Assembly: GCA_030674455.1 (NCBI GenBank) | Contig: JAUSGQ010000044.1 | Coordinates: 13,080 to 77,079, forward strand | Source: a bacterium | GTDB lineage: Bacteria; Patescibacteriota; Minisyncoccia; Phycocordibacterales; UBA2100 | Direction of reading: 5' to 3' | Length of the DNA stretch: 64,000 nt | Shown here: positions 1,188 through 50,223 of the stretch, piece after piece | Numbering within the stretch: position 1 is the stretch's first letter | How the letters are laid out: every line of letters begins with the position of its first letter | The notes under the pieces: generated by a model | Told to the model about the DNA's origin: nothing | Seen by the model: only the letters and a program-made list of their open reading frames with translations | Databases searched by the model: none | Translations under genes and position numbers: made by a program

Positions 1188-1248
1188 TACGAGATGAGTA
1201 CATCGGCGAATTCTGACGATATTGGTCGTGAGGTGTTAATAACTAGCC

Positions 1249-1280
1249 ATAAACACTCACGGTCGTGATAGTTTATGGCT
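1249..1280 (+). repeat. 30-bp palindromic direct repeat, left copy (ccataaacaCTCACGGTCGTgatagtttatgg); overlaps start codon of the PaaX-like gene
   Basis: Near-identical copy at 1912..1945. The CTCACGGYCGTG core recurs on both sides of the paralog at 43.1 kb. Confidence 0.6.
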
Positions 1281-1859
1281 ATGGGGAATATCGAACGAGA
1301 AGCGAGAAGAAAGCGAGTCCGCGGATATGTACAAAAAGCCGTACTCGCAACCATAGCGATATCAGGAGTGCTGCTTGTTACCATGGCTGCGCCGAATACG
1401 TTACAGCTCCTAAAATACGTGCCCGGCATCAGACGCTACCGTTTTAACCAGCAGGCAGAAACTGCCCTTAGTCGCCTTGCACAGAAGAAGTGGATTACAT
1501 TTGAGAGGCACAATGGAAAGCGATTTGCTCGCATTACCGAGGCCGGGAGACATGCGTTCATGGCAGAGAACCGAAAAAACAAATTGATACCTCTCATAAA
1601 AAGACGATGGGATAAAAGATGGCGAGTAGTTATTTTCGATGTCCCAGAAAAACGCAGAGACGTGCGCGACCGGCTACGCTCCATGATGCGCGAGTTTGGT
1701 TTTGAGCATTTGCAAGACAGCGTATGGGTATATCCTTATGACTGCGAAGATATGGTTGCGCTTCTCAAGGCGGAACTTAAAATCGGATTTTCCGTACTAT
1801 ATATGGTTGTTGAACAAATCGAGAATGAGAAATACCTGAAAGAGAGATTCGACTTGTAA
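1275..1859 (+). CDS. PaaX-like small regulator with N-terminal TM helix (paralog of 43159..43728)
   Basis: 194 aa. TM helix, winged-helix-like segment (..RFARITEAGRHAF), then the motif RRWDKRWRVVIFDVPE..R..LR..GF..LQDSVWVYPYD shared with PaaX C-domains. Clear paralogy to the second copy. Confidence 0.6.
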   Translation: MAMGNIEREARRKRVRGYVQKAVLATIAISGVLLVTMAAPNTLQLLKYVPGIRRYRFNQQAETALSRLAQKKWITFERHNGKRFARITEAGRHAFMAENRKNKLIPLIKRRWDKRWRVVIFDVPEKRRDVRDRLRSMMREFGFEHLQDSVWVYPYDCEDMVALLKAELKIGFSVLYMVVEQIENEKYLKERFDL

Positions 1860-1911
1860 CAATAAAACCTGAAACAAGGTATCAGCCCTTTTCCCCCCCC
1901 CATCCCACTAA

Positions 1912-1945
1912 CCACAAACGCTCACGGTCGTAAGTATTTGTGGTG
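1912..1945 (+). repeat. 30-bp palindromic direct repeat, right copy (accacaaacgCTCACGGTCGTaagtatttgtggt)
   Basis: Direct repeat of 1249..1280. Hairpin-capable (accacaaa/tttgtggt). Confidence 0.6.
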
Positions 1946-3287: not shown

Positions 3288-3295
3288 ATTTTGAT

Positions 3296-3345
3296 GAAGC
3301 TCCAAAATCCAAGCTCCAAATCTCAAACAAAAAGAATGCAAAACT
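3296..3345 (+). repeat. ~50-bp repeat copy 1 (gaAGCTCCAAAATCcAAGCTCCAAATCtcaaacaaaaagaat..)
   Basis: Near-identical to 4645..4700 and inverted relative to 3711..3760. Contains a tandem 13-mer AAGCTCCAAAWYC. Confidence 0.7.
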
Positions 3346-3710
3346 CATAACTTAGATAAAATGGAGCTAAAAATCTTTAATAACTCGATTGATTCTCTGA
3401 TTAAACCATCGCGCTCCACGCCAAGCTCTTCTGGTATCTGTTCGAACATTTGCAACCAATATCGCGTTTCTTTAGCTTCCTTTCGACAAATCTTTACGCG
3501 CATACCAAAGTCTTTTTTACTCAGAGACTCGTTGGCCTCGATATAATTCGCACCAACATATCCCGAAGAGCGAACCACTTGCTTTGCGTCTTCATTGTTT
3601 ACGATATCTCTTGGCAACTTTTTGATGAAACGTCTGACATTCAGCGCGAGAAGTCGCGTGCGTTCTTCTAAATCATTTTTGTATTGTTTATGTTCTTGAG
3701 GTTTATTCAT
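3345..3710 (-). CDS. four-helix-bundle protein (23S rRNA IVS-encoded protein / bAvd-like family)
   Basis: 121 aa. Family motifs such as QMFEQIPEELGVERDGLIRESIELLKIF, GYVGANYIEANES and RYWL. Bracketed by inverted copies of a ~45-bp repeat. Confidence 0.8.
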   Translation of the reverse strand: MNKPQEHKQYKNDLEERTRLLALNVRRFIKKLPRDIVNNEDAKQVVRSSGYVGANYIEANESLSKKDFGMRVKICRKEAKETRYWLQMFEQIPEELGVERDGLIRESIELLKIFSSILSKL

Positions 3711-7359: not shown

Positions 7360-7414
7360 TAAGGCAATCCTAGCACAATCACAAAATTAGGGCTAAAGCC
7401 CTGCAATGAATGCT

Positions 7415-7452
7415 GTCATCATGTAATGTCCGGCCGGACATTACATGATGAC
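7415..7452. repeat. 38-bp perfect palindrome GTCATCATGTAATGTCCGGCCGGACATTACATGATGAC
   Basis: Read directly from the sequence. Lies in the perM-glyS spacer with no U-tract after it. Confidence 0.7.
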
Positions 7453-7498
7453 ATGAAGATCCAATGTAATTCTTTCGACGTTATTCACTGCCTTGTTT

Positions 7499-7538
7499 CC
7501 TGTACCATTCACTGACAGGTGTCAATGAATGGTACAGG
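7499..7538. repeat. 40-bp near-perfect nested palindrome CCTGTACCATTCACTGACAGGTGTCAATGAATGGTACAGG
   Basis: 13-bp outer arms plus an internal TGACAGGTGTCA palindrome. Confidence 0.7.
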
Positions 7539-7584: not shown

Positions 7585-8934
7585 TTAATTCACTTTGATT
7601 TGTTGCTCAAGCTCTGATACCGAAACCCGCTCCTGCTTACCCGTGTCGCGGTCGCGCACCGTCACGGTATCATCCTCGAGTGTCTGGAAATCAATGGTGA
7701 TGCAAACAGGCGTTCCTATCTCATCCTGCCGGCGATAACGCTTGCCGATGTTGCCGTTGTCGTCCCACATGATTTGCGGGACATTTTTCTTGAGACTCGT
7801 GTATACTTCGCGTGCTTTCGCGACAAGTTCCGGCTTATTTTTCAGCAAAGGAAACACGGCCGCTTTCACCGGAGCTACGGCCGGATTGAATTTGAGATAC
7901 GTCCTTGCTTCCTTTCCTAATGTGTCCTCCGTATACGCCGTTTGAAGTACTGCCAATATAATCCGCTCGACGCCGAACGAAGGCTCAATGACATGAGGAA
8001 TGAATTTGCCTTCCCCTTCTTCCAAATACTTGAGTTCAACTCCGCTCGAAGCTTCGTGTCTTGATAAGTCGAAATCCGTCCGGTATGCAAGACCGAACAG
8101 TTCTTTGCGTCCGAACGGAAAATCAAATTCAAAATCAATTGTTCTCTTGGAGTAGTGCGCGCGGTCTTCGGGCGATACTTCCAGTTCGTGAATAGAAGAT
8201 TTTTCTACCCCGATGCTTTTTAGGAAACCGAGAGACTGCTCGCGCCATATTTCAAAGCTCTCTTTCCATTCTTTCTCCCGAACAAAATATTCAATTTCCA
8301 TCTGCTCAAATTCGCGCGCGCGGAAAACGAAATCACGCGGGGCTATTTCGTTCCTGAATGCTTTGCCTATCTGTGCCATGCCGAACGGAAGCTTCGGATG
8401 GAACGAGTCGATAATGTTTTTAAAGTTGACGAATATTCCGCCGGCTGTTTCCGGACGCAGGTACGACGTTGATGATTCATCCTCCGTTGGGCCGACGTAC
8501 GTCTTAAACATCATGTTGAATTGGCGTACTTCAAACTTTTCATTATCTGCTCCGCAATTTTCACAAACCCATTTTTCTTTTCCAGCCAAAATCTTTCCCA
8601 GCTCGTTTTTTTGATACTTAATGCTCACGTGGTCTGCTCGGAATCGCCTCTTGCATTTCTTGCATTCCACCACGGGGTCGGAAAATCCGGCCACGTGGCC
8701 GCTCGCCTCCCACGCCTTCTTTTGCATGATGATTGCCGCGTCGACTCCGTACATATCGTCGCGCTCCTGCACGAACATTCTCCACCAGAGATTCTTGATA
8801 TTATTTTTTAGTTCCAACCCAAGCGGGCCGTAATCCCAGAACCCCGAAAGCCCGCCGTAAATCTCGGAGCCAGGATATATGAACCCACGCCTCTTAGCGA
8901 GCGACACTATCTTTTCCATTGTGACTTCAGTCAT
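7585..8934 (-). CDS. glyQS: glycine--tRNA ligase (class II, GlyQS type)
   Basis: N-terminus RRGFIYPGSEIYGGLSGFWDYGPLG is diagnostic, plus class-II motifs. Confidence 0.9.
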   Translation of the reverse strand: MTEVTMEKIVSLAKRRGFIYPGSEIYGGLSGFWDYGPLGLELKNNIKNLWWRMFVQERDDMYGVDAAIIMQKKAWEASGHVAGFSDPVVECKKCKRRFRADHVSIKYQKNELGKILAGKEKWVCENCGADNEKFEVRQFNMMFKTYVGPTEDESSTSYLRPETAGGIFVNFKNIIDSFHPKLPFGMAQIGKAFRNEIAPRDFVFRAREFEQMEIEYFVREKEWKESFEIWREQSLGFLKSIGVEKSSIHELEVSPEDRAHYSKRTIDFEFDFPFGRKELFGLAYRTDFDLSRHEASSGVELKYLEEGEGKFIPHVIEPSFGVERIILAVLQTAYTEDTLGKEARTYLKFNPAVAPVKAAVFPLLKNKPELVAKAREVYTSLKKNVPQIMWDDNGNIGKRYRRQDEIGTPVCITIDFQTLEDDTVTVRDRDTGKQERVSVSELEQQIKVN

Positions 8935-11479: not shown

Positions 11480-11514
11480 GATTCTTTGCTTGAAATCTGG
11501 TGCCTATTCCCTGC

Positions 11515-12090
11515 CTATAAGTGTGTTTCTGAAATGGCCTGATTGATGGATGAAAGAAGCTTTTCGCGTACAAGTTCGGCCTCGCGCAAATGTTCATCCG
11601 CGTATGCCGTGTGTGTAAGAAGAGCGCTTTTTAGCGCTTCATTGGAAATATATCCGAGCGCATAGAGAACACGCGCAACGCACACAAGTTCTATGGTCGC
11701 CCACGCTTCGCACTTCTCCTGCGCAAGGGTGGAGCGCGCTTCGCACAAAATATCGAAAAGCCCTTTGTTCGCCTCCTCTCCCGCGACAAACCGCACGACA
11801 AGTCCTGCGATGCGCGCGAATGCCTGCATGCCCTTTATGTCTCTCACTTTTGAACTTCCTAAAGCAGTTGCTCCCGCCAGGCGCCAGCCCTGCTTTCCTT
11901 TGACGAGAGAAATGCTTGCGAAAGAATAATTCTGCAGAGCATATCGCATTTTAGATTTTACCGAGCGGATTCCTCTGCCCCGCGCTCGCACAAGCCCGAA
12001 GTCGCGCGTGTAGAGCGCGAGCACGCGGTCTGATTCTCCGATTTCGCGGCTTGCGAGCACCAGCGCGTCGGTGTGATACTTTTGGTACAT
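11515..12090 (-). CDS. recO: DNA repair protein RecO (short form)
   Basis: N-terminal OB-fold signature (DALVLASREIGESDRVLALYTRDFG). Confidence 0.6.
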   Translation of the reverse strand: MYQKYHTDALVLASREIGESDRVLALYTRDFGLVRARGRGIRSVKSKMRYALQNYSFASISLVKGKQGWRLAGATALGSSKVRDIKGMQAFARIAGLVVRFVAGEEANKGLFDILCEARSTLAQEKCEAWATIELVCVARVLYALGYISNEALKSALLTHTAYADEHLREAELVREKLLSSINQAISETHL

Positions 12091-12094
12091 GCGG

Positions 12095-12130
12095 AGCAGG
12101 TTATAGGTTTTAGGTTATAGGTTTTAGGGA
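12095..12130 (-). promoter_or_regulatory. AGGTTATAGGTTTTAGG tandem motif between ileS stop and recO start (overlaps ileS last codons)
   Basis: aggttataggttttaggttataggttttaggg. Confidence 0.4.
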
Positions 12131-15094
12131 AATCTTTGTATTCGTTGCTTTTTGGATAGCATCGAGATTTTTTTCGATAACAGCACGGTTTTCTTGCGCG
12201 ACCGTAATGGAAACACTCCCGCGTTCTCCCGCTCTCATCTTTGCCGCTTTGCGTGCGTCTTGCACAAGGCGCACGACATCCCGCACAATTCCCTCTTCCT
12301 TTAACTCCGGCGTAAGTTCAATATCAAGCGATACAACGGATGTCCCGCCATCAGAGCTTTCCAACACGACTTCTTTTACGTTGACTTCATCGGCAATGAG
12401 CGGCGCCACATCCTTCCAAAAAGGAATTTCTGCCCCTTTGTGCTTTATGGTGAGCTTTGCGAGCGGCTGGCGAACTTTAATTCCCGCTTCTGAACGCTGC
12501 ATCAGAGCCATCGTGACAAAACCTCTTGCGGCCATCATGACGGCTAAAATTGCGGGCGCATCAAAATCAAGTTTCGGCATTTCCGGCCACGACGCGAGGT
12601 GTACGCTCTCCTCGTCTTCTTCCTCGCGAACATCCTGGAACAAATGCTCGGCAAGAAACGGCATAGACGGAGCAATGACCCGCGAGAGCGTGTGGAGCAC
12701 ATATCGCAATGTTGCGAGAGCGGCCTTTTTGTCTGCTCCGTCCTCTTTAATTCGAACGCGCGAGCGGCGCAAGTACCAAACGGAAAGGTCGTCAATAAAA
12801 AGCGCGAGCGGACGCACCGCCTTGTCCAACTGATACTTTTCATATCCTTCGGTAGTTTCTCCTATCAAAGCCGCGAGGCGGGTTAGAATCCATCTGTCCA
12901 AAATATTCGTACTCTTATAGTCGCGCGGGGTATCGTTTTCATAAAGTTTATAAAACGCGAGTACATTATTGAGCCGTCCGATATTTTTCTTTGCGACTTC
13001 ATTCACTCCGCTTTCCGCAAAGCACAAGTTTTCGGCTTGCACGACTGGCGATGATAATAGATAGAGCCGTAACGCGTCCGCGCCGTATTTATCAACAACC
13101 TCCATCGGGTCGGGATAATTATTGAGCTTTTTCGACATTTTCTTGCCGTCTTCGGCCATGACGATGCCTGTCACGATGCAGTGCTTGAATGCCTCCTTGT
13201 CGAAGAGCGCGCCCATGAGTACGTGCTGGTAGTAAAACCACGCGCGGCACTGGTCCTGCGCCTCGGCGATGAAATCAGCAGGTACGCGTTTTTTTAACGT
13301 CGCTTCGTTTTCCTTCGGGTAGTGGAGAATAGCAAACGGCACCGAGCCGGAATCAAACCATGTGTCCAGCACATCAGGAATCCTCTTCATTTTTCCGCCA
13401 CACTCGCACGATACCGTAATCTCATCAACAACATCCTTGTGAAGGTCTGTAACTTTTGTCCCGCTCGCTTTTTCTAGCTCTAGAGCAGAACCGAAAACTC
13501 GCTCCGCTTTGCACTTTTCGCATCTCCATATGGGAATGGTATTTGCCCAAAAGCGCTGGCGTGAAATTGACCAGTCGCGCGCGCCTTTGAGCCATTCGCC
13601 GAACCTTCCATCCTTGATGTGCGCCGGAGACCATTCGATATTTTCCGCAGTTTTCAAGAGTTTGTCTTTGATTTTCGTGACCGCAACAAACCACGAGGAT
13701 GTGGCATAGTTGAGAAGCGGCGTATCACAGCGCCAACAATGCGGATATGAGTGCGTAATATTTTCTTTTAAAAAGAGTGTTCCATGTTCCTGCAAATATT
13801 TCAGTATCGCAATATCCGCGCCAAGCCGAACCTTATCGTCTTCAGATTGAGGTTTAACCTCAATTCCCGCGAAATCAGCCACTTCCGGCCTGAATGTTCC
13901 GTCCATATTGACATGCTGAACGAATGGCAAATTCTTTTCTTTGCCAAGGGCCATGTCGTCTTCACCGAAAGCAGGAGCGATATGCACGATGCCGGTTCCC
14001 GTTTCTGTCGTCACGAAGTCTGCGGCATAAACTTTCCAACCGTTCTCGCGATTCTTGAGCGATTCATCTTTTGAGTAGTAATCAAAGAGAGGTTCGTATT
14101 CAAGGCCGACAAGTGCGTTTCCTTTTATTTTTTGCTTTATCTCAAATCTTTCTGGCACTCTTTCAAGCGCAACAATGTACTGTTCATCGTCATTCAACGA
14201 CATTCCAACATTCTCAAGAATGTTGGAATGTTCCGAGGAAATGGCGGAGGTGAGCGCATATGTAATATCAGCTCCAACCGCAAGAGCAACGTTCCCGGGC
14301 AGAGTCCACGGAGTCGTCGTCCACGCGAGTAGGTACACTTCGCCTTTCAATCCGAGCTTTTCCGGATTCTTTACCTTGAACTTTACCGTCACGGAAATAT
14401 CCTTCACATCCTTGTACCCGTCAGCAACTTCGCCCTGGCTCAATGTCGTCTCACAGCGCGGGCAAATGTGCATCGAGCGATAACTTTCGTAAATAAGTCC
14501 GTCGTCATAGAGCTTCTTGAAAGCCCACCACTCGCTCTCCATGTAGGCGAAGTCCATCGTGCGGTATGGATTCTCCATGTCGGCCCATCGGCCGAAGCGC
14601 GGAATGATGCGCTCCCATTCGTGAATGAATGTGAATATGCGCTCTCGGCAGAGGTCATTAAATTTCTTCACGCCCATCGCTACGATGTCTTTCTTCGATT
14701 TTGTGCCTATTTCTTTTTCGACGATGTTTTCGATAGGAAGCCCGTGGCAGTCCCAACCCCACTGACGCTCGACGTGAAATCCCTGCATCGTTTTATAGCG
14801 CGGAATTACGTCTTTAACCGCGCTCTGCAGAAGATGCCCGTAGTGCGGAAGCCCTGTAGCAAAAGGCGGGCCATCATAAAAAACGTAGTCGCCCTTTGGC
14901 GCGCTTCGCTCAAGCGATTTCTTGAAAATGTCATTTTTGAGCCAAAACTCCAAAATAGTTTCCTCGCGCAACGCTGTCTCGGATTTCTTCCCTTGCCCTC
15001 CTGTAGCTTTACTGTGTCCGTCCGTAGCCTTGTGCGGAGGAGGAGCGGAGGAGGGCTCGCGCTTCGCAGTTTCGCTCTTTGGAACCTCTTTCAT
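12110..15094 (-). CDS. ileS: isoleucine--tRNA ligase
   Basis: 994 aa with HYGH, KMSKK and an editing domain. The ~45-aa low-complexity N-terminal extension may be upstream of the true start. Confidence 0.9.
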   Translation of the reverse strand: MKEVPKSETAKREPSSAPPPHKATDGHSKATGGQGKKSETALREETILEFWLKNDIFKKSLERSAPKGDYVFYDGPPFATGLPHYGHLLQSAVKDVIPRYKTMQGFHVERQWGWDCHGLPIENIVEKEIGTKSKKDIVAMGVKKFNDLCRERIFTFIHEWERIIPRFGRWADMENPYRTMDFAYMESEWWAFKKLYDDGLIYESYRSMHICPRCETTLSQGEVADGYKDVKDISVTVKFKVKNPEKLGLKGEVYLLAWTTTPWTLPGNVALAVGADITYALTSAISSEHSNILENVGMSLNDDEQYIVALERVPERFEIKQKIKGNALVGLEYEPLFDYYSKDESLKNRENGWKVYAADFVTTETGTGIVHIAPAFGEDDMALGKEKNLPFVQHVNMDGTFRPEVADFAGIEVKPQSEDDKVRLGADIAILKYLQEHGTLFLKENITHSYPHCWRCDTPLLNYATSSWFVAVTKIKDKLLKTAENIEWSPAHIKDGRFGEWLKGARDWSISRQRFWANTIPIWRCEKCKAERVFGSALELEKASGTKVTDLHKDVVDEITVSCECGGKMKRIPDVLDTWFDSGSVPFAILHYPKENEATLKKRVPADFIAEAQDQCRAWFYYQHVLMGALFDKEAFKHCIVTGIVMAEDGKKMSKKLNNYPDPMEVVDKYGADALRLYLLSSPVVQAENLCFAESGVNEVAKKNIGRLNNVLAFYKLYENDTPRDYKSTNILDRWILTRLAALIGETTEGYEKYQLDKAVRPLALFIDDLSVWYLRRSRVRIKEDGADKKAALATLRYVLHTLSRVIAPSMPFLAEHLFQDVREEEDEESVHLASWPEMPKLDFDAPAILAVMMAARGFVTMALMQRSEAGIKVRQPLAKLTIKHKGAEIPFWKDVAPLIADEVNVKEVVLESSDGGTSVVSLDIELTPELKEEGIVRDVVRLVQDARKAAKMRAGERGSVSITVAQENRAVIEKNLDAIQKATNTKISLKPIT

Positions 15095-17934: not shown

Positions 17935-17985
17935 TTGTGGATTATGCGCTAAAGGCGAGTCGCGGTCGAGGCATAAGATATGCGT

Positions 17986-18062
17986 GTCATTGCGAGCTAT
18001 GCGAAGCAATCTAGAGGACTCTGTTGAATCATTCTGGATTGCTTCGCTGCGCTCGCAATGAC
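17986..18062. repeat. palindromic repeat family member a (GTCATTGCGAGCtatGCGAAGCAATC...GATTGCTTCGCtgcGCTCGCAATGAC)
   Basis: 77-bp near-perfect hairpin downstream of the 18081..18731 gene. Family members also at 26488, 30089, 40403 and a degenerate one at 31296. Confidence 0.7.
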
Positions 18063-18080
18063 AGCACGTCCGATTCGTTA

Positions 18081-18731
18081 TTATGACGTGATCCGTTTGA
18101 TTGCAGAAAAGGCGCGATCGATATCTTTGTCAGCAAAAATAGTGCTGAATTCTGTCCCGATAGACATGACTTCCACGAGACTGATGCCATCCTCCGCAAT
18201 CGCTTTCAAAATCGGGTAGTACAGCCCCGGCACATTTAAGCTCGGCTCCGGCAGGCGCATGGTAATGGCCGAGAGGCCGCCCACTCGTTTCAAATACTTC
18301 TGATTGTCGAACGATGCCACCACTTCTTTTTCAATCTCTTGGCTCACGATAAGAAGCGACTCGTAGAGTCCGCGTGAAAAGTTGAGGAACACGCCTTTTT
18401 TATTTTTTGCGATGCGCGAGATCTTTCCTAATACGCCGGATAGATCTGCCGAGTTCGGAAAAACGAACTGCACCAAATTCGAGCGCACCGTGATGTCGCT
18501 CATCTGTTTTAAAAATCGCGTTCCGTACGGAACAACTTTGTAATCTTTCGCTATCCGGTGGAGTGCCATCGCGATTGACCCTTCGGAAACTTCCTCAAGC
18601 AAGATTTTCTCCACTTCAGGTTTTATCCTGCGGGCGATTTGCGCGTTGTTGGCCAACCCCTCGGCCATCGCCTCGGCTAGGAAGGGCGACCGGTGGATTA
18701 TGCCTTCAACGACTTGGCTTACAGTTCTCAT
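18081..18731 (-). CDS. hypothetical protein (possible ACT-like regulatory domain at C-terminus)
   Basis: 216 aa, divergent from asd-lysC. The C-terminus ISLVEVMSIGTEFSTIFADKDIDRAFSAIKRI resembles aspartokinase ACT ends. Its start codon coincides with the end of MITE copy 1. Confidence 0.5.
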   Translation of the reverse strand: MRTVSQVVEGIIHRSPFLAEAMAEGLANNAQIARRIKPEVEKILLEEVSEGSIAMALHRIAKDYKVVPYGTRFLKQMSDITVRSNLVQFVFPNSADLSGVLGKISRIAKNKKGVFLNFSRGLYESLLIVSQEIEKEVVASFDNQKYLKRVGGLSAITMRLPEPSLNVPGLYYPILKAIAEDGISLVEVMSIGTEFSTIFADKDIDRAFSAIKRITS

Positions 18732-18871
18732 ACCCGGTTAGTACAATTTCGAATAATTCCTGCCGTAGATGCGCCAGCGAATATTTGGAAAGACTGCTTA
18801 ATCAATTTTCTTTTCATATGATGTTGATTTGTTCATAACAAGGCGATTCGAAATTGTCCTACCGGGCATAT
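18729..18871 (+). mobile_element. MITE copy 1 (gene-less derivative of the GIY-YIG TIR element) with CATA target-site duplication
   Basis: TIRs CCCGGTTAGTACAATTTCGAAT (18733..18754) and ATTCGAAATTGTCCTACCGGG (18846..18866). Flanking direct repeats CATA at 18729-18732 and 18867-18870. The interior keeps an MPGRTISNR... remnant of the GIY-YIG ORF. Confidence 0.8.
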
Positions 18872-21448: not shown

Positions 21449-21588
21449 TATGCCCGGTAGGACAATTTCGAATCGCCTCATATGACTATTCGCCATCACA
21501 TGAAAAGAAGATTGTTGGAGCGGTCGTTACAGATGTCCGCAGGTGTAACTACGGCAGAAATTATTCGAAATTGTACTAACCGGGTATG
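21449..21588 (-). mobile_element. MITE copy 2 (inverted relative to copy 1) with TATG target-site duplication; exactly fills the lysC-dapB spacer
   Basis: TIRs CCCGGTAGGACAATTTCGAAT (21453..21473) and ATTCGAAATTGTACTAACCGGG (21563..21584). TATG at 21449-21452 and 21585-21588; the latter contains the dapB ATG. Confidence 0.8.
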
Positions 21589-22326
21589 AACATTGCACTG
21601 CTAGGACATGGAAATATGGGGCTGGAGATCGAACGGCTTGTTCGGGCTTCCGGCACGCACACAGTTTCCGTAATAGGAATGGAGGAGCCAAGCGGCGCGA
21701 TAGATACAGCTGGCCTCAAAAACGCCGAAGTTGTAATCGATTTTACGTCGCCGGAAATAGTGATGAACGATATTCGCACCGTGGCAAAAGAGGGGAAAAA
21801 TCTCGTCGTGGGAACTACGGGATGGCAGGAACACCTGCCGGAGGTGGAAAAAATCGTTCGCGAGAGCGGAATTGGCCTGATTTACGGCCAGAATTTCTCG
21901 ATAGGCGCGAATATCTTTTTCCGCGCGGTAGCTCATGCGACAAAACTATTCTCTGCATTTAAAGACTACGATGTGTACGGTTTGGAAATTCACCATGCCG
22001 GGAAAAAAGACAGTCCATCGGGGACTGCCCTGCGGACCGCGCAAGAAATTCTGCAGAACTCAAGCACCAAAAAAATCCTAACGACAGGTAAACTCGACAG
22101 AAAAGTACGTCCGGAAGAACTGCACTTCGCGTCCGTGCGAGGCGGCGTGAATCCCGGATTCCACGAAGTGGTTTTCGACAGCCCCGCCGATGCGGTTACT
22201 ATTTCTCATTCCGCGCACAACAGGGAGGGATTTGCGCAGGGCGCTATCCTTGCGGCAGAATTCATTCAAGGGAAAAAAGGCCTGTTTACATTTGATGACG
22301 TGATGAAAGCTCATGGCATAAAATAA
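21586..22326 (+). CDS. dapB: 4-hydroxy-tetrahydrodipicolinate reductase
   Basis: NAD-binding N-terminus (IALLGHGNMG) and HHAGKKDSPSGTA motif. Confidence 0.9.
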   Translation: MNIALLGHGNMGLEIERLVRASGTHTVSVIGMEEPSGAIDTAGLKNAEVVIDFTSPEIVMNDIRTVAKEGKNLVVGTTGWQEHLPEVEKIVRESGIGLIYGQNFSIGANIFFRAVAHATKLFSAFKDYDVYGLEIHHAGKKDSPSGTALRTAQEILQNSSTKKILTTGKLDRKVRPEELHFASVRGGVNPGFHEVVFDSPADAVTISHSAHNREGFAQGAILAAEFIQGKKGLFTFDDVMKAHGIK

Positions 22327-26487: not shown

Positions 26488-26565
26488 GTCATTGCGAGCA
26501 ACGCGAAGCAATCCAGTGGATTGTACAAATTACTCTAGTTTGCTTCGCTAAGCTCGCAAAGACGG
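26488..26565. repeat. palindromic repeat family member b (GTCATTGCGAGCaacGCGAAGCAATCC...TTTGCTTCGCtaaGCTCGCAAAGAC)
   Basis: Directly downstream of rplK. Confidence 0.65.
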
Positions 26566-27013: not shown

Positions 27014-27192
27014 GTTAGATTTTGTTACGAGCGAAGCGAATTAGAAAATCTTACACCCAGCACCTTTTACGCCTAAAAAGCTGTTTGAACGATGATAATA
27101 CTTTGAAAATCTGTTTTGGGCAATGTGGTTCATAGTGAAGTTAAAGGTGCTGGGTAGTGAAAAATATACTTACTTCGTTCGTTATTTTTCTA

Positions 27193-27738
27193 CTATACCC
27201 TCTGCACCTGGTCGGCTTCGAGTTCGACTGGCGTCTCTCTTCCGAACATCGGAACTAACACCTTAACCTTTCCACGCTCTTCGTCAATCTCCCCCACTTT
27301 TCCTTCCAAATCTTTAAAAGGTCCGTCGATTATTACCACCGCATCGTCGAGTGCGAGATCAATCGCGTGGCGCACCGTGTCGCCGTCGGTCCGCTTCAAG
27401 ATTTTGTCCACCTCTTCTTGCGAAAGCGGGACCGCCTGATTTGCCGTGCCGACGAATCCGGTAACCTGCGGCGTGTTGCGGACAACGCTCCATGCATCGT
27501 CGGTGGCTATCATGTCCACGAGGACGTAGCCGGGGAAAATCTTCTCCTTCACCTCCGTCTTGCGGCCGTTCTTTATCTTTATTTTTTTTTCCGTAGGAAC
27601 TACGACGGAGAATATTTTGTCTTTCATGCCGAAGGAATCAATGCGCTGCTTTAGGTTGCGGGCTACCGCATCTTCATAGCCGGAATACGTGTGGATTGCG
27701 TACCATTGTCTTTCAGAACCGTGTGTTTGTTTGGACAT
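27193..27738 (-). CDS. nusG: transcription termination/antitermination factor NusG
   Basis: NGN domain (WYAIHTYSGYEDAV) and KOW (GKVGEIDEERGKVKVLVPMFGRETPVEL). Confidence 0.9.
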   Translation of the reverse strand: MSKQTHGSERQWYAIHTYSGYEDAVARNLKQRIDSFGMKDKIFSVVVPTEKKIKIKNGRKTEVKEKIFPGYVLVDMIATDDAWSVVRNTPQVTGFVGTANQAVPLSQEEVDKILKRTDGDTVRHAIDLALDDAVVIIDGPFKDLEGKVGEIDEERGKVKVLVPMFGRETPVELEADQVQRV

Positions 27739-27740
27739 AG

Positions 27741-27775
27741 GGGTAGGTTATAGGTGTTAGGTTACAGGTTATAGG
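27741..27775 (-). promoter_or_regulatory. tandem AGGTTAYAGGT motif abutting the nusG start
   Basis: gggtaggttataggtgttaggttacaggttatagg. Confidence 0.4.
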
Positions 27776-27778
27776 AAA

Positions 27779-28060
27779 TTACGGAGTGGTTGTGTCGGAG
27801 GTTGTTGCCGCTGCAGGAGTTGTAGTCGAGAGATTGATATTATCAATCGTAACTGCCGGAACGTTTGCTACAGGCAGGGTTTCTAGCACGCTGCGCAATC
27901 CGGTAGTAAAAATGTAGTCAAAGAGGCCGAGGTATAGAGCAATGAAAACGGAAAGCAAAATGACGATTATCGTATACACGATGGTCTGAAGCTGCGTAGG
28001 CCAAGCCACGTGCCGTAATTCCCCGCGCGTATCTTTGAGGTACTGAAAGAAGGATGACAT
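27779..28060 (-). CDS. secE: preprotein translocase subunit SecE (with Thr-rich C-terminal tail)
   Basis: 93 aa. TRGELRHVAWPTQLQT followed by a TM helix. Position upstream of nusG-rplK. Confidence 0.7.
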   Translation of the reverse strand: MSSFFQYLKDTRGELRHVAWPTQLQTIVYTIIVILLSVFIALYLGLFDYIFTTGLRSVLETLPVANVPAVTIDNINLSTTTPAAATTSDTTTP

Positions 28061-28105
28061 AGGTTACAGGTGCTAGGTTTTAGGGAATAGGTTATAGGTT
28101 ATAGT
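28061..28105 (-). promoter_or_regulatory. tandem AGGTTAYAGG motif abutting the secE start
   Basis: aggttacaggtgctaggttttagggaataggttataggttatag. Confidence 0.4.
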
Positions 28106-28130
28106 AAATTCGTCAAAACTCTCCCTAATC

Positions 28131-40402: not shown

Positions 40403-40490
40403 GTCATTGCGAGGAATGAGGAGGAACGACGAATGACGAAGCAATCCAGGGTAACCTTCAGAACTCCTGGATTGCTTCGCTTCGCTCGAC
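40403..40490. repeat. palindromic repeat family member d (GTCATTGCGAGG...GAAGCAATCCAGG...CCTGGATTGCTTCGCTTCGCTCGAC)
   Basis: Sits between two convergent genes. Confidence 0.65.
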
Positions 40491-40503
40491 TCGACGAGTG
40501 TGA

Positions 40504-43036: not shown

Positions 43037-43125
43037 ATATGTACACCGCAGACTAACAGAAAATAGGAGAACAGAAAAGGTTGCGGCAGATTGCCGATCC
43101 GTAATCCGTTGCATTACATCCGTTC

Positions 43126-43146
43126 CACAATCCCTCACGGCCGTGT
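43126..43146 (+). repeat. direct repeat, left copy (caatccCTCACGGCCGTG) overlapping a -10-like TATAAT 8 nt before the ATG
   Basis: Repeated at 43745..43766 and related to 1249/1912 through the CTCACGGYCG core. Confidence 0.55.
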
Positions 43147-43158
43147 ATAATCGTTGAC

Positions 43159-43728
43159 ATGGGTAAATTGGAGTCCGAGTTCCGTTTGGAACGGCGAAAA
43201 GGATATGTGCGCGATGGCCTTCTTCTCGCCCTTGGGTTATCCGGTGCAATACTTTTTCCGTCCATAGCACTCGCTACACTCCAAATCATCGGTATAGCAG
43301 ACAGAAATAAACGCAAGTTCAGTTACCAGATAAAAAATGTTGCTTCCCGCTTGGCCAGTCAAGGTCTTGTTCGATTCAAGAACAAGGGATTTATCGAACT
43401 GACTGAAAGTGGACAGCGAGAATTTCACCGTTTAGAGCTGGAAATGGTACTGCGTTCCAACGTACGGCGAAAATGGGACAAAAGGTGGCGCATGGTCATA
43501 TTTGACATCCCGGAACGCTACCGGAATATCCGCGACAAACTTCGAGTGACACTTCAATCCTATGGATTTCACCAACTTCAACAAAGCGTTTGGATTTTCC
43601 CATACGACTGCGAGGACGTGGTTACGCTTCTGAAAGCTGATCTGGGTGTTGCTGGCTCGGTATTGTATGCAATAGTCGAGAAGCTCGAGAATGATTCGCG
43701 CCTTAAGCAGGAGTTCGGACTTCGGTAA
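43159..43728 (+). CDS. PaaX-like small regulator with N-terminal TM helix (paralog of 1275..1859)
   Basis: 189 aa. RRKWDKRWRMVIFDIPERYRNIRDKLR..GFHQLQQSVWIFPYDCEDVVTLLKADL is close to collinear with the first copy. Confidence 0.6.
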   Translation: MGKLESEFRLERRKGYVRDGLLLALGLSGAILFPSIALATLQIIGIADRNKRKFSYQIKNVASRLASQGLVRFKNKGFIELTESGQREFHRLELEMVLRSNVRRKWDKRWRMVIFDIPERYRNIRDKLRVTLQSYGFHQLQQSVWIFPYDCEDVVTLLKADLGVAGSVLYAIVEKLENDSRLKQEFGLR

Positions 43729-43744
43729 CGATGTCAACAATCCC

Positions 43745-43775
43745 TCACGGCCGCGAGGGATTGTTGACACGAGAG
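43745..43775 (+). repeat. direct repeat, right copy, palindromic (caacaatccCTCACGGCCGCGagggattgttgaca)
   Basis: Perfect 13-bp inverted arms around CACGGCCGCG. Same CTCACGGCCG core as the upstream copy. Confidence 0.55.
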
Positions 43776-43801: not shown

Positions 43802-46180
43802 TTATGCTTTGTTATCCCTTTTGGCAAGATAGGACGCAAGGCCGCCCGGGCGCGAATATGCAAATACATTTTCGATTCCTGCATCTCTGGCAAGTACAAT
43901 CACTGCTTCAATTAGGCGCTGAGAGACTGGCGCATCGTCGTGAATGCGCACATCACCTTTAGGCTCCGGGTATTGCAGAAGCATGTTGTATCCGAGAGAA
44001 CTTTTGTCTTCCGGCCGGCCATTCGGGATGAGACCGACGAAATGTGCGCCTTCCGAAAGCCCCGCCTTCGGCTTTTGGTGGAATTTAAAAACGGCATCCT
44101 GCGGAACGTACGCGAGCACTTCTTTTTCCGAGGGCCGTCTACAGGTGCCGATGCCTATCCCATCGGCCATTTTAGAAACTTCCGGCACCGGCCTCGGCCT
44201 ATAATCAGCACTGCAGATTGAAATGCAGACGATATTTTTTCCCTGCGGAGCTAATACTTTCGGCGTAAGGAGTTCATCGTAGGTGATGCCGAGCAATTCT
44301 TTGCCCGAGAGGTCGGTGCGCACGAGCGCGATCTGCCCGGCGATGTGTTCGGCACTTGGCCGATGGGTTGGCATCGGCACCTGTCGACGGTCCGCGGCAA
44401 GAATAATGACCTGCTTCGGGATATTTTTTTCATACGCGGTCTTTTCCGCCATGAGCGGCTCCCAGCAGTGGTTGTAAAGTTCGTACGATTCCTTAACCCA
44501 TCGCGAATACCGATGAAGCACCGTGAAGCGATACTCCGGAGTTTTAAACAATCCATAGATCGATTCAAAGCTCTCGTATGGAAGCTGCTGTTTAAGGATT
44601 GTACGCTGAACTTTTCCCGTCGAGGTCGTCGGGAGTTCCGCGACAGTCATCGAAGTGATGTACTTCGGCGTTTCGTATGCGCTCAAGTACGGCGTACCGC
44701 ATAAAAGCGCCAATTTGAGCCGTCTTTTGGCGGCATCAGTATCAACTCCCTCTTTCCACGAAATCACGGCGCCGCATTCCTCGCCGTAGCGCTCATCGGC
44801 TACCGACACAACGTGAACCTGCGCGATGTCGGAAGATATTTTCTTGAGAGAATTTTCCACGGCAATCGGCGAAATGTTGATGCCGCCTTTGATGATAATT
44901 TCGCGCTTGCGCCCTTTGAGATAAAAATACGGCCTCCCCTCCTCAATGCGGAAATAGCCGATGTCGCCCGTCAAAAAATATCCGCGTGCCTCTGTAGGCA
45001 GGTCGCAAAACGCAGGCTCGCCGCCGACATACCCTTCCATCAAGGCTTCGCCTTTGACGATGATTTCTCCTTCTTCTCCCTCCCCCTGGAATTTCCCATT
45101 CTCATCTGCAATGCGCACATCCGCCCACGACATCGGAGCGCCGATCGAGTTTTCTTCCACGAGACGTTCATACAACTCTTCCGATAGTCCCATCGGCACG
45201 CCCGTCACGCGAAGCGCAGTTTCCGTCTGCCCGTATCCCTGATAGAGCGAGATGCCGAATTTCTTTCTGAATTCTTGCACCGTGCTGGCGATGACGGGAG
45301 CCGAACCTATCTGTATGCGCGAGAGAACGACATTTTTTCTCACCGCTGCGTATTCTTCCTCGCGGTTCAACTGGTCAAAGAGAATTGACTGCACGATAGA
45401 TGTAATCGTCGCGGAGGTCGCGGCTATCTGCTGCCAGAAGTGCGAGTTAGAGTATGCTGGTGGAATCGCGATGGAGCCGCCGGCAAGCAGCATCGCGAGG
45501 CAAAAGGTCGTTGAGTTAATGTGGTGCAGCGGGAGATTGACCAGGAACCTGTCTGTCTCGGTAATTCGAAGCCACTCGCCAATAGCCTCCGCATTGACGA
45601 TGAGATTCTTGAGCGAGAGCTTCGCACCCTTCGGATGCGCCGTCGTGCCGGAAGTAAATAAGACGAGAGCTTGATGCGAAAGCCCCGTTTCCCAAACAAC
45701 CTCTGTATCCTGCTTTTTAGGAAAGTCTGAAAATTCTTTGATATTCACTCCGCTTAAATGCGATTTATCTGCGTCTTTGAGCAAGCCTTTCTGTGCTACT
45801 AGTACTTTCGCACCGTTCAGTTTGATTTTGTATGCGTGCTGTTCGCCCGTGTCGCGTTTCGTGTCGAGCGGAATAGTAATGATTCCGGTACTCCACGCCG
45901 CCCACGAGATTATGAGAAGTTCGGCAGAATTCTTGAACGCGAGCGCGGCCCTGTCCCCTTTGCGCAGGCCCAATTCAGACAGATAGGAGGCAGCTGATTC
46001 CACTTCTTTAGCCAGCTCCCCAAAATTTATTTCACGCAGGATTTTCCCGGTCTCATCGCAACTCACAAGAGCTGCGCGAGAAGGATGCATTTGAGCAAGA
46101 TGTGCGATATGTTCGTGCAGACTTTTGATGCGTTTTTCGTGCATGTGGCTTACTTTACTCTTGAGGCCTCTTGCGCGCAA
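43802..46180 (-). CDS. acyl-AMP ligase (AMP-binding superfamily) fused to a ~280-aa C-terminal domain of unknown function
   Basis: 792 aa. TSGTTAHPKG, GYGQTE and ..TSTGKVQR.. adenylation motifs occupy the first ~510 aa. The remainder has no recognisable motif. Confidence 0.7.
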   Translation of the reverse strand: MRARGLKSKVSHMHEKRIKSLHEHIAHLAQMHPSRAALVSCDETGKILREINFGELAKEVESAASYLSELGLRKGDRAALAFKNSAELLIISWAAWSTGIITIPLDTKRDTGEQHAYKIKLNGAKVLVAQKGLLKDADKSHLSGVNIKEFSDFPKKQDTEVVWETGLSHQALVLFTSGTTAHPKGAKLSLKNLIVNAEAIGEWLRITETDRFLVNLPLHHINSTTFCLAMLLAGGSIAIPPAYSNSHFWQQIAATSATITSIVQSILFDQLNREEEYAAVRKNVVLSRIQIGSAPVIASTVQEFRKKFGISLYQGYGQTETALRVTGVPMGLSEELYERLVEENSIGAPMSWADVRIADENGKFQGEGEEGEIIVKGEALMEGYVGGEPAFCDLPTEARGYFLTGDIGYFRIEEGRPYFYLKGRKREIIIKGGINISPIAVENSLKKISSDIAQVHVVSVADERYGEECGAVISWKEGVDTDAAKRRLKLALLCGTPYLSAYETPKYITSMTVAELPTTSTGKVQRTILKQQLPYESFESIYGLFKTPEYRFTVLHRYSRWVKESYELYNHCWEPLMAEKTAYEKNIPKQVIILAADRRQVPMPTHRPSAEHIAGQIALVRTDLSGKELLGITYDELLTPKVLAPQGKNIVCISICSADYRPRPVPEVSKMADGIGIGTCRRPSEKEVLAYVPQDAVFKFHQKPKAGLSEGAHFVGLIPNGRPEDKSSLGYNMLLQYPEPKGDVRIHDDAPVSQRLIEAVIVLARDAGIENVFAYSRPGGLASYLAKRDNKA

Positions 46181-46865
46181 TTATCAGAAGACCGGTTCCG
46201 AATGGCAACGAAATGAATCTTATGAGCATAGATTCAATTTTTACAACAGCGAAAAAAATCGCGTTGAGTAAGCGCGGCATCCTCAAAGAGCTGTCGCCTG
46301 ACCTTCCCAAGAGGCGCATGAGCGCGGCAGGAATGAAAAGCAGCATGTTCCAGTAACTCGCGTATTCAACTTCAAATCCGGCGTCATTCAATACAGCGCG
46401 CATTGAGGCTTTCGTATACCTTCGGAAATGATGGTGGTTAACATCATGAATGCCCCAGAGAAATTGGAACGCGGGCACTGTTATTGCGAGGTGGCCGCCG
46501 CTCTTTAGCGCCCCGTGGGCTTTTACCAGAAACTCCCTGTCATGCTCGATGTGTTCAACAACATCAAATAGCCCTATCAAATCGTACGCTCGTCCCAGTG
46601 CCTCGCTTTCAGTTGATAATGCACGCAGATAGCCGCGCTTGCTGGCGGCTTCTCGCGCTTCCGCATCCGGCTCGTAGGCATATATATTCTTTCCGATGCG
46701 CGAAAGGTCTTTATACATTCCTCCGTAACCCGCGCCGAAATCAAGAACATCTTCTGCCCGCTTCGCGCCGCACTTCGCAAGCCCGGCGTGAATTGCCGCG
46801 GCACGGCCTCGGTACCACCAGGATTTCTCCATGTCACTCAAAAGTTTAAAAGCGTTTCTCTCCAT
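46155..46865 (-). CDS. class I SAM-dependent methyltransferase
   Basis: VLDFGAGYGG motif I. The start ATG lies inside the left terminus of the GIY-YIG element. Confidence 0.8.
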   Translation of the reverse strand: MERNAFKLLSDMEKSWWYRGRAAAIHAGLAKCGAKRAEDVLDFGAGYGGMYKDLSRIGKNIYAYEPDAEAREAASKRGYLRALSTESEALGRAYDLIGLFDVVEHIEHDREFLVKAHGALKSGGHLAITVPAFQFLWGIHDVNHHHFRRYTKASMRAVLNDAGFEVEYASYWNMLLFIPAALMRLLGRSGDSSLRMPRLLNAIFFAVVKIESMLIRFISLPFGTGLLIIARKRPQE

Positions 46866-47172
46866 ACCCGGTTAGTACAATTTCGAATTATTCCGTCCGT
46901 AATAATCTTTCAATCGCTTTGCAAGAAAGCGACGGCCTCCCGTGGTTTTGAAATATTGTTCTCGACGTTTTGCGTCAACCAGAGAACGACATGCTTCGTA
47001 GTACGCAAGTATAAAAGGCCGTCGTGGTGCTGTGGCAAAACTTTTACCCTGCTGGTGTTGATCCATGCGCTTTCGCAGATCACTCGTATATCCAATATAT
47101 TGCTTATAGTCTTTCATACTCTGCAAGACATAGACATAATAAAAGCGATTCGAAATTGTCCTACCGGGCATA
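46863..47172 (-). mobile_element. TIR-bounded GIY-YIG element (autonomous-looking copy): 22-bp terminal inverted repeats, 4-bp CATA target-site duplication, single 99-aa GIY-YIG gene
   Basis: TIR-L CCCGGTTAGTACAATTTCGAAT (46867..46888), TIR-R ATTCGAAATTGTCCTACCGGG (47148..47168). CATA at 46863-46866 and 47169-47172. The first 8 codons of the GIY-YIG ORF (MPGRTISN) are encoded by the TIR itself. Confidence 0.8.
46872..47171 (-). CDS. GIY-YIG nuclease family protein (YhbQ/UPF0213-like)
   Basis: YYVYVLQS..YIGYTSDLRKRMDQHQQGKS..RRPFILAYYEAC..AKRREQYFK matches the GIY-YIG motifs. Confidence 0.8.
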   Translation of the reverse strand: MPGRTISNRFYYVYVLQSMKDYKQYIGYTSDLRKRMDQHQQGKSFATAPRRPFILAYYEACRSLVDAKRREQYFKTTGGRRFLAKRLKDYYGRNNSKLY

Positions 47173-47174
47173 TA

Positions 47175-49395: not shown

Positions 49396-50223
49396 CTACA
49401 TTCTTCCATGATCATCCTCAATGCGCACGATGTCGTCCTCGCTGAAATCTCCGTAGGCAACTTCTACAACGACCCCACCGTACTTGGAGAACAGCCTGTG
49501 TACCTGCTTTTTCACGACCCGGAAGACTTCGCCTTTTTTGAGCGCGACCGTCCGCTTTCCGGAAGAATCATGAACAATCGCGGAAGCATCGCCTTCCACG
49601 AGCAACCACCACTCCTCGCGGTTATGGTGGTACTGCAGGCTCAAGCGTTGCGCCGGTTTTATGTAGATTGTTTTCAGGTTCCACCCTTCTCCGTTATCCC
49701 ATCCGTAATATTCACCCCACGGGCGCACCGTCTTGGATGCGTGGCGGCGCGAAGCCTTAATCATCCACGACGACGATTGCACTTTGCCGCCCTCGCCGAC
49801 GTTGAAAACCATTCTTGTGCCGAGCTTTTTGCATGTGGCTACTTCCGGTATGTTGCTTTTGAATCGGTCCCCGCCGTTGGCAAAAACAGCCGGCTTCAAT
49901 TTCTCTATCGCACGGCATACGCTCGTATCAACATCCCCCTTTTTGTGGTCGGTAATCACCACCTTATCTACAGTGGGCAACGAGCGCAGGAGTTCGGCCC
50001 GCTCTTTCTGCGGCATGAAAACAAATCCCTTTTTTGCCTTCAGCCAATGGTCATTATTGAGTATCACCACGAGTCTGTCGCCGAGCTTTCGGGCCTCCTT
50101 GAACATGCGGATGTGTCCGATATGCAGCGGATCAAAGCCACCGGAAACGGCTATCCAGCGAGTTGAGTTCTTCTTCACCCCGTTAGAGGCAGGGCGCGGT
50201 CGTTTTGATTCTTTGGTATTCAT
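49396..50223 (-). CDS. cytidylyl/adenylyltransferase (HIGH nucleotidyltransferase) fused to a cupin domain
   Basis: IAVSGGFDPLHIGHIRMF (HxGH), then a C-terminal cupin (..LQYHHNREEWWLLVEGDA..). The N-terminus MNTKESKRPRPASNG is encoded within the duplicated inverted-repeat module. Confidence 0.7.
   Translation of the reverse strand: MNTKESKRPRPASNGVKKNSTRWIAVSGGFDPLHIGHIRMFKEARKLGDRLVVILNNDHWLKAKKGFVFMPQKERAELLRSLPTVDKVVITDHKKGDVDTSVCRAIEKLKPAVFANGGDRFKSNIPEVATCKKLGTRMVFNVGEGGKVQSSSWMIKASRRHASKTVRPWGEYYGWDNGEGWNLKTIYIKPAQRLSLQYHHNREEWWLLVEGDASAIVHDSSGKRTVALKKGEVFRVVKKQVHRLFSKYGGVVVEVAYGDFSEDDIVRIEDDHGRM

Follow-up and report, generated by a model that had tools for sequence, protein, structure and literature searches.

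The 64,000-nt stretch of contig JAUSGQ010000044.1 analyzed here (positions 13,080 to 77,079 of the forward strand, assembly GCA_030674455.1, from a bacterium of the Patescibacteriota; henceforth the window) contains two paralogous genes encoding PaaX-like proteins, referred to as locus 1 and locus 2. No further member of the family was found in the 64 kb by tblastn. Each gene lies between two long palindromic elements, and a gene together with its two palindromes is henceforth referred to as a cassette. The features of locus 2 are as follows.

43123..43158, + strand: upstream operator-like element, identified by repeat search, with outer half-sites TCCACAAT and ATCGTTGA
43124-43129, + strand: -35-like hexamer TCCACA from a consensus scan, with a 16-bp spacer to the -10 (10/12 matches; orthologues keep the hexamer)
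43137-43144, + strand: core of the upstream element, ACGGCCGT, centered between 43140 and 43141, 18 nt before the ATG
43146-43151, + strand: -10 hexamer TATAAT, 7 nt before ATG 43159 and inside the right arm of the putative operator
43159..43728, + strand: locus 2 gene, 189 amino acids (aa), predicted winged helix plus Cas2-like PaaX_M domain; conserved MGKLE start, probably leaderless
43732-43769, + strand: downstream element TGTCAACAATCCCTCACGGCCGCGAGGGATTGTTGACA, starting 3 nt past the stop codon
43747-43754, + strand: core of the downstream element, ACGGCCGC

The sequence 5′ of the locus 2 open reading frame (ORF) is caatccCTCACGGCCGTGTATAAT, with ...TCCACAATCCCTCACGGCCGTGTATAATCGTTGAC directly abutting the ATG. 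A TATAAT-like hexamer ending 8 nt before the ATG, reported in the first-pass annotation of this DNA, was confirmed with 7 nt intervening, and the sequences quoted in that annotation are all present in the window. The downstream palindrome, which it described as having 13-bp arms, is likewise present but longer than described, spanning 38 bp with 15 perfect outer pairs, one A.C mismatch and then 3 further pairs. As RNA this palindrome is predicted to fold at -27.7 kcal/mol on the + strand and -30.8 kcal/mol on the - strand (z about -6). Both elements of locus 2 are kept in its orthologues (the upstream element in L001, L002, L081, L082 and L126). The upstream region is near-invariant among them as TCCACAAT-N5-yACGGCCGTrTATAATCGTTGAyATGGG, and the downstream copy retains ATCAACAAT-N5-ACGGCCGT-N5-GATTGTTGA, with TATAAT absent there. 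The corresponding features of locus 1 are listed below.

1244..1281, + strand: upstream element TAGCCATAAAC..GTTTATGGCTA, with core ACGGTCGT at 1259-1266
1269-1274, + strand: TAGTTT of the extended -10-like sequence TGATAGTTT, 6 nt before ATG 1281
1281..1859, + strand: locus 1 paralog gene, 192 aa, product 42% identical to that of locus 2
1910..1945, + strand: downstream element AACCACAAAC..TATTTGTGGT, with core ACGGTCGT at 1924-1931 and a copy of the shared 12-mer at 1921-1932

Exactly four copies of the CTCACGGYCG core are present in the 64-kb window, one on each side of each paralog. A search with the 12-mer CTCACGGYCGYG, allowing one mismatch, returned 6 matches against 1.34 expected, a number that 0/100 shuffles reached; the four meaningful copies start at 1256 and 1921 (locus 1) and at 43134 and 43744 (locus 2). 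The existence of a downstream copy at locus 1 means that both paralogs are flanked on both sides. Upstream of locus 1, the motif CTCACGGTCGTGATAGT was indeed located (1256-1272), but the start codon it had been placed directly in front of required correction: alignment of the family (MGNIE vs MGKLE) puts the start at ATG 1281 and not at the in-frame ATG 1275, because the MG(K)LE N-terminus is conserved. With this start, the core begins 25 nt before the ATG in both paralogs. The earlier observation that the motif overlaps the -10 and start region in both genes also held, with the center of the element 17-18 nt from the ATG and the -10 carried by its right arm. The core and half-sites are present in all four window copies, while predicted folding ranges from z = -6 to z = +0.9 among them; the locus 1 upstream element folds at -19.7 kcal/mol.

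The comparative set comprised 80 homologous loci from species-representative genomes, all of them Patescibacteria/Paceibacteria-type (candidate phyla radiation (CPR)-type) assemblies or uncultured metagenome-assembled genomes, and several paralogs were often found per genome. For each locus, 70 nt before the start and 110 nt after the stop were set out, and the best ungapped match between a gene's own upstream and own downstream flank was scored against mismatched locus pairs as the control. The upstream palindrome recurs downstream of the same gene nearly everywhere, with arms that vary from locus to locus. The median score was 22.75 for own flanks and 8.5 for mismatched pairs, and 68/80 loci exceeded the 99th percentile of the control; at least 85% of the loci are thus bracketed by matching palindromes. 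Identity between the upstream and downstream copies was 0.64-0.93 within ±21 nt of the center and 0.27-0.33 just outside. The centers are of one type across loci, namely ACGGCCGT, ACGACCGT, GCGGTCGC, GCTATAGC or GCCATGGC.

Operator anatomy was measured on 64 upstream/downstream element pairs anchored at their centers. The element spans ~36-40 bp and is tripartite, consisting of a central RC-N4-GY core, a loose 6-bp spacer and an 8-bp outer half-site. Complementarity between the arms was distributed as follows.

Positions ±2 to 4: 0.89-0.98
Positions ±5 to 10: 0.52-0.70
Positions ±11 to 18: 0.78-0.98

Complementarity falls off past position 19. C(-3) and G(+3) are found in 62-63 of the 64 loci and the central dinucleotide is unconstrained (GC, AC or GT, TA, AT). 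The outer half-site has a weak consensus (tCcacAA) yet is strongly palindromic within each locus. Since the core and outer arms are paired and the spacer between them is loose, the profile is that of a protein site and not of a continuous stem. The literal CTCACGG motif, which the first-pass annotation expected to find conserved in other paralogs, is not conserved across the family; what is conserved is RC-N4-GY with palindromic outer arms. Its operator reading nevertheless gains support from the 80 loci, in which the motif appears as the center of a locus-specific palindrome of ~36-40 bp. That reading can also be extended beyond the original annotation because the downstream palindrome is, judged by its sequence, a second copy of the same putative operator.

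The same measurements bear on the possibility that the palindromes act as nucleic-acid hairpins, the downstream copy being a (bidirectional) terminator or an mRNA-stabilizing stem-loop and the upstream copy the terminator of the neighboring gene or a structural by-product. The predicted stabilities of the locus 2 downstream and locus 1 upstream elements agree with such a role, as do the position of the locus 2 downstream copy between convergent genes and the 20/64 downstream copies with at least 16/17 pairs. Another 20/64, however, have at most 12/17 pairs, and the spacer at ±5 to 10 is complementary in just 0.5-0.7 of loci as compared to 0.8-0.98 for the core and outer arms. A T-run was found 3′ of the element in 6/64 loci versus a 5% background, while canonical T-run terminators are present in the same genome (2006-2027). 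No stable fold is predicted for the upstream copy of locus 2 (z +0.9), which would lie outside the transcript if the mRNA is leaderless. Generic terminators, moreover, would not be expected to match across the two flanks of one gene and yet differ among loci. An RNA family was also considered and dropped, there being no Rfam match anywhere in the window, and a canonical intrinsic terminator was rejected given that the U-tract is not enriched and the spacer is only partly complementary. A hairpin function as the explanation of the palindromes is therefore considered unlikely.

The palindromes are closely tied to the gene they enclose. Among 95 strict operator matches in the 464 kb of loci, 86 flank a family gene. 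Paralogs of one genome differ in their half-sites, as seen for locus 1 versus locus 2 and in L005, L053 and L071. The protein alignment was compared with the consensus half-operator for co-variation by mutual information with average product correction (MI-APC), with phylogeny not controlled. Residues 53-57, where the predicted recognition helix begins, co-vary with half-site positions -16 to -18, and residues 122 and 126, in helix 1 of the Cas2-like domain, co-vary with core position -4. At residue 122, R accompanies A at core position -4 in 27/40 loci and K accompanies G in 20/21. The winged-helix region had a mean co-variation of 0.344 with the outer half-site, and the Cas2-like domain one of 0.129. 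The invariant residues R125 and R129 share a helix face with residue 122 and, we infer, recognize the G:C pairs that are invariant at ±3. In Cas1-Cas2-prespacer structures, a Cas2 dimer can be aligned along the DNA duplex. These patterns are suggestive of an adjacent protein that reads its own flanking site.

A distant PaaX_M subfamily (28% identity) is found close to the tdh-like gene in other relatives (L104, L105 and L106). The L104 and L106 genes (minus strand, about 7610-8170 and 3114-3670, respectively) are flanked on both sides by C(-3)/G(+3)-centered palindromes, ACATATGT upstream and a CATATG-centered one downstream; L105 has a comparable palindrome downstream, ACAATTGT, its upstream region lying beyond the contig end. 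The occurrence of such palindromes in so distant a subfamily indicates that the palindrome-bracketed architecture is old.

It is very unlikely that the palindromes are instead the binding sites of a different host factor, for example a nucleoid protein or global regulator, or form a genome-wide repeat family to which the PaaX-like gene is incidentally adjacent. Further intergenic hairpin and repeat families do occur in the window, as do two solo 40-bp palindromes, the first with a family-like core. The arms, on the other hand, are locus-specific but common to both flanks, the CTCACGG type is limited to its four flanking copies in 64 kb, and both the 86/95 association with family genes and the co-variation of the half-site with the recognition helix point to the adjacent protein. 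The two solo palindromes are perfect, lie 85 bp apart (7413-7453 and 7498-7538) and are located between glyS (7585-8934, - strand) and a permease gene (6301-7359, - strand). The first of them (…GTCCGGCCGGAC…) combines CATCA-like outer arms with a C(-3)/G(+3) core; it has no adjacent PaaX-like gene and might represent either an orphan operator or simply an ordinary hairpin. Between the glyS and permease homologues of L038 and L077 lies a PaaX-like cassette plus other genes. A third operator copy within ±3 kb was observed in 2/64 loci, 1.6-2.7 kb from the cassette. In L037 this own-operator copy (center 1363) directly precedes the ATGGG start of a 74-aa ORF, and in L043 it (center 299) lies between the 3′ ends of a small helix-turn-helix gene and gatB, so that the obg-gatB unit is bracketed too.

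At 50% identity, the proteins retrieved by profile search form 449 clusters with E <= 1e-30 and 3134 with E <= 1e-10, and the protein length is 180-200 aa in almost all clusters. Both window products match Pfam PF20803 (PaaX_M, the central Cas2-like domain) with 79.2 and 75.4 bits (cut-off 24; E about 1e-22, 2.5e-22 for locus 2). The NCBIfam PaaX model TIGR02277, with a cut-off of 264.55, gave 38 and 50 bits over model positions 37-139 only. No PaaX_C domain was matched in the Pfam search of the two products, and the locus 2 protein ends at residue 189. The Pfam model of the PaaX N-terminus was not matched either, and only weak winged helix-turn-helix (wHTH) models were. In the AlphaFold2 (AF2) model of the locus 2 protein, residues 106-189 are confident (predicted local distance difference test score, pLDDT, about 90), and the predicted recognition helix (51-67) precedes a beta-hairpin (71-81) that forms the predicted wing. 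Foldseek placed E. coli PaaX (8a39) and Rv0674 of M. tuberculosis (3kfw) at the top, with about thirty Cas2 chains next; the alignments to 8a39 and 3kfw cover 151-176 columns (151 for 8a39). Searching the solved structures by sequence gave a weak match to 3kfw alone. On the basis of the PaaX_M match, the AF2 model and the Foldseek ranking, the product is modeled as a two-domain protein with a PaaX-like winged helix and a Cas2-like dimerization module. A membrane protein was considered in view of the hydrophobic, poorly modeled residues 20-46, but these align to helices 1-2 of the PaaX winged helix and a transmembrane helix was dropped on that inference.

The NCBI name of an identical protein is "CRISPR-associated endonuclease Cas2", and relatives are also named "hypothetical protein" or "PaaX". 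The Cas2 name plausibly arose because the cut-off of TIGR01573 (Cas2) is nominally passed, at 26.6 and 25.4 bits versus 24.5, but over 35-41 residues only; Pfam PF09827 (CRISPR_Cas2) remained below threshold (20.5 and 21.6 bits versus 23.8). The name is probably wrong for the locus 2 protein and several relatives. The protein shares with the Cas2/VapD group its fold, as seen in the matches to many Cas2 structures, and Asp116, the equivalent of the Cas2 catalytic Asp, is invariant or nearly so in the family together with a PYDCE motif. Unlike in Cas2, the Cas2-like domain is fused to a winged helix and the sequence match extends over ~35-41 residues. Unlike CRISPR repeats, the cassette repeats are 600 bp apart and enclose a gene rather than spacers. 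No CRISPR-like array was detected in the 64-kb window, and no cas genes were found among the called neighbors of relatives, the window ORFs not having been searched for cas1. A literature search on PaaX with Cas2 or Patescibacteria, and on orphan Cas2, returned no description of the family or its architecture.

Promoter and Shine-Dalgarno (SD)-like sequences were counted in 82 genes of the family. A TAnnnT hexamer precedes the conserved start, ATGGG, with a gap of 6 nt in 49% and 7 nt in 17% of genes (66% together). At gaps of 5-9 nt, at least 5/6 matches to TATAAT were found in 48% of loci compared to 2.9% at random positions. Only 9% of the other candidate starts in the window carry TAnnnT at a 6-7 nt gap, which makes the arrangement family-specific. 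SD-like 4-mers were found in 4/82 loci. These counts lend family-wide support to the leaderless or near-leaderless transcript predicted in the first-pass annotation. Across the window, SD-like 4-mers precede 12% of the candidate starts of long ORFs, which is about background, and it appears that this organism generally relies little on SD sequences. The center of the upstream element is 17-18 nt from the ATG in 27/64 loci, both window loci included, and in these the -10 lies within the right arm of the putative operator, which reaches to or covers the ATG. Most of the remaining loci have the center 30-66 nt upstream, so that the right arm overlaps or borders the -35 region. On the downstream side, the element often starts only a few nt past the stop codon, the stop-to-center distance being 18-25 nt in 23/64 loci. 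The two centers of a cassette are 602-749 bp apart (median 647 bp).

Our preferred reading, with a probability of about 0.62, is that loci 1 and 2 are self-contained, monocistronic, leaderless and autorepressed cassettes with PaaX-type long palindromic operators on both flanks. Self-repression from both sides appears most likely because the same layout recurs in at least 85% of the 80 relatives. In the proposed mechanism, a minimal PaaX-type regulator would dimerize and bind a two-fold symmetric operator of ~36-40 bp, its winged helices reading the locus-specific outer half-sites at ±11 to ±18 and its Cas2-like dimer lying over the conserved central RC-N4-GY core. The ATG at 43159 is the predicted transcription start of a leaderless mRNA. 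Because the operator at 43123-43158 includes the -10 and ends at this predicted start, its occupancy would exclude RNA polymerase and result in negative autoregulation. The downstream copy (43732-43769) is proposed to be an auxiliary operator and/or a roadblock: most likely it would assist through cooperative binding or looping across the gene (610 bp), and it may also, or instead, act as a protein or hairpin roadblock ending the transcript. Translation from a leaderless start would be limited to transcripts initiated at the cassette's own promoter, and expression would therefore be independent of the surrounding genes and their orientation.

Several observations weigh against autorepression from flanking operators. 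A regulator with detectable targets only beside its own gene has no obvious benefit for the host. The upstream center is 45-66 nt or more from the ATG in about a third of loci, which fits simple occlusion less well. Residues 1-49 have a pLDDT below 50 in the AF2 model, and the winged-helix assignment there comes through alignment to PaaX models. The co-variation between protein and site, with shared ancestry uncontrolled, is to be taken as a lead. Some downstream copies are perfect 40-bp palindromes for which very stable RNA hairpins are predicted. The helical-phasing signal that would favor looping, a 10.0-bp periodicity in the center-to-center distance (R = 0.35, jitter-null p about 0.005), loses its significance after redundancy reduction, weakening to p 0.05-0.12 at identity thresholds of 70%, 60% and 55% and to p about 0.56 at 50% (16 representatives).

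The proposed autorepressed cassette has its nearest likeness in PaaX of E. coli and Pseudomonas (PDB 8a39, 3L09), repressor of the phenylacetate catabolon, which has an N-terminal winged helix followed by a Cas2-like dimerization domain, the order predicted for the cassette protein. In E. coli, PaaX recognizes the site TGATTC-N27-GAATCA, and its Px promoter is autorepressed through exclusion of RNA polymerase (PMC9493321). The 39-bp split palindrome of PaaX compares with ~36-40 bp for the putative operator here, a likeness at the sequence level, and the occlusion of its own promoter has a possible counterpart in the palindrome over the -10 and start. Unlike PaaX, the cassette protein is devoid of PaaX_C and has no evident phenylacetyl-CoA pocket, its 189 aa comparing with a 305-residue chain in 8a39. 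The cassette also differs in having an extra conserved central core in the putative operator, a copy of it on both sides of the gene, a probably leaderless promoter and many orthogonal paralogs per genome, and in the loci retrieved it is found in Patescibacteria only. The system resembles PaaX autoregulation but, in terms of family membership, falls outside both bona fide PaaX and Cas2. A promoter operator with a second operator a few hundred bp downstream is also found in lac O1/O2 and gal OE/OI, which act jointly through DNA looping; unlike in lac and gal, the second site of the cassette is found shortly beyond the stop codon of the gene for the regulator itself.

Should the protein prove to be a minimal PaaX-type DNA binder with a readable site, the Cas2 annotation carried by some members of a large family would be corrected. 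The family would, if the reading holds, offer dozens of natural protein-operator pairs with orthogonal specificities for the study of DNA reading by wHTH/Cas2-like proteins and as regulatory parts. The -10 box 6-7 nt from the ATG would provide a clean and testable leaderless example in CPR bacteria, in which promoters and translation signals are poorly known. A regulator that appears to act on itself only, and that is gained, lost and moved as a unit, also poses the question of its use to reduced genomes, or of its selfishness.

The genomic setting of the cassette was compared among relatives. The cassette was always monocistronic, and the orientations of its neighbors were random (++ 22, -- 20, +- 17, -+ 15). 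Orthologues of locus 2 were found in four contexts, listed here with their identity to the locus 2 protein.

tdh-like / AMP-binding ligase (window, L001, L081-84, L126): 80-87%
ilvD / NifU (L002, L167-170): 77%
ribonucleotide reductase / hypothetical (L085, L086): 75%
near gyrA (L171-173): 58%

Both palindromes move together with the gene across these contexts. In three metagenome loci without a cassette (L087, L088 and L090), the ligase and tdh genes are adjacent and the tdh-like protein is 89-90% identical to that of the window; all outgroups likewise have ligase and tdh adjacent without a cassette. These findings, together with the monocistronic layout, the random neighbor orientation, the several diverged paralogs per genome and the near-invariance of Asp116 and PYDCE, would suit palindromes that are the ends or recombination sites of a (formerly) mobile element, with the wHTH-Cas2-like protein as an end-binding and possibly catalytic protein of the transposase, RAYT-REP (repetitive extragenic palindrome) or Xer-dif kind. 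A gene located between cognate palindromes that differ among paralogs, as a module that is gained and lost, is indeed what the cassette has in common with RAYT/REP systems, insertion sequence (IS) terminal repeats and pdif (Xer) modules. Unlike these, the cassette is without an HUH, DDE or tyrosine-recombinase domain, dispersed REP-like copies, a target-site duplication or near-identical copies. No target-site duplication was detected outside the palindromes at the boundary offsets tested (16 to 29 nt), and no solo palindrome was present at empty sites. The intergenic DNA of the cassette-less ligase-tdh loci is an unrelated inverted-repeat element, and no insertion boundary or footprint could be defined. 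Identical proteins were each confined to a single context (P0025 on 23 contigs, P0009 on 18 contigs); two apparent upstream contexts for P0025 were an artifact of differing gene calls on identical DNA. Within-genome paralogs are only about 40% identical and therefore show no sign of recent copying, and near-identical dispersed copies were not found. The central dinucleotide differs or is inverted between the copies in many loci, which is unfavorable for recombination. The family was not found on viral (IMG/VR) contigs, and a phage origin was rejected for this reason. A mobile-element origin of the palindromes accordingly appears improbable, and the sequence comparison instead describes the cassette as a module that has been acquired, lost and moved between contexts over long periods, with no sign of an active transposon.

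A more radical form of this idea, which we regard as rather improbable, is a minimal selfish cassette whose protein recognizes the ~40-bp palindromes as its own ends and moves or duplicates them via Asp116/PYDCE, akin to Cas1-Cas2 at CRISPR arrays. If true, it would explain the relocation between contexts, the presence or absence among close relatives and the orthogonal sets of paralogs.

The product of the convergent neighbor of locus 2 (43802-46180, - strand) is an AMP-binding, acyl-CoA ligase-like protein of 792 aa that carries a long extension at its C-terminus. The adjacency of this gene to locus 2 recalls that of PaaK beside PaaX but looks coincidental, because the AMP-binding gene stands without the cassette in many relatives. 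A functional link to this PaaK-like neighbor was rejected given that the cassette also has other genomic contexts and is not always present where the AMP-binding gene is. No paa genes were consistently found nearby, and the neighbors vary among relatives.

Several other repeats were noted in the window. The element CCCCGTTAGAGGCAGGTCG occurs twice (6166-6210 and 50166-50210), and as an inverted pair ~75 nt apart it fills the ligase-tdh gap of the cassette-less relatives (L087 4860-5000, L088, L090 and L123). An intergenic hairpin family, GTCATTGCGAGC…GCGAAGCAATC, is present in three copies (17985-18063, 26488-26563 and 40403-40495) and is unrelated to the PaaX-type palindromes. Heptad-like repeat arrays (TAGGTTT / ATAGGTT) are located at 531-569, 1160-1182, 12093-12131, 27740-27778 and 28049-28115. 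Such arrays lie directly upstream of the minus-strand starts of ssb and of the genes at 11514-12090 and 27192-27738, and may be a shared promoter or regulatory element. Finally, a ~100-bp repeat (…GGAATTATTCGAAATTGTACTAACCGGGTATG…) makes up the 5′ portion of several ORFs and is found in either orientation (18728-18871, 21449-21589, 46863-46901 and 47142-47173), and a GIY-YIG-like ORF is located at 46872-47171.

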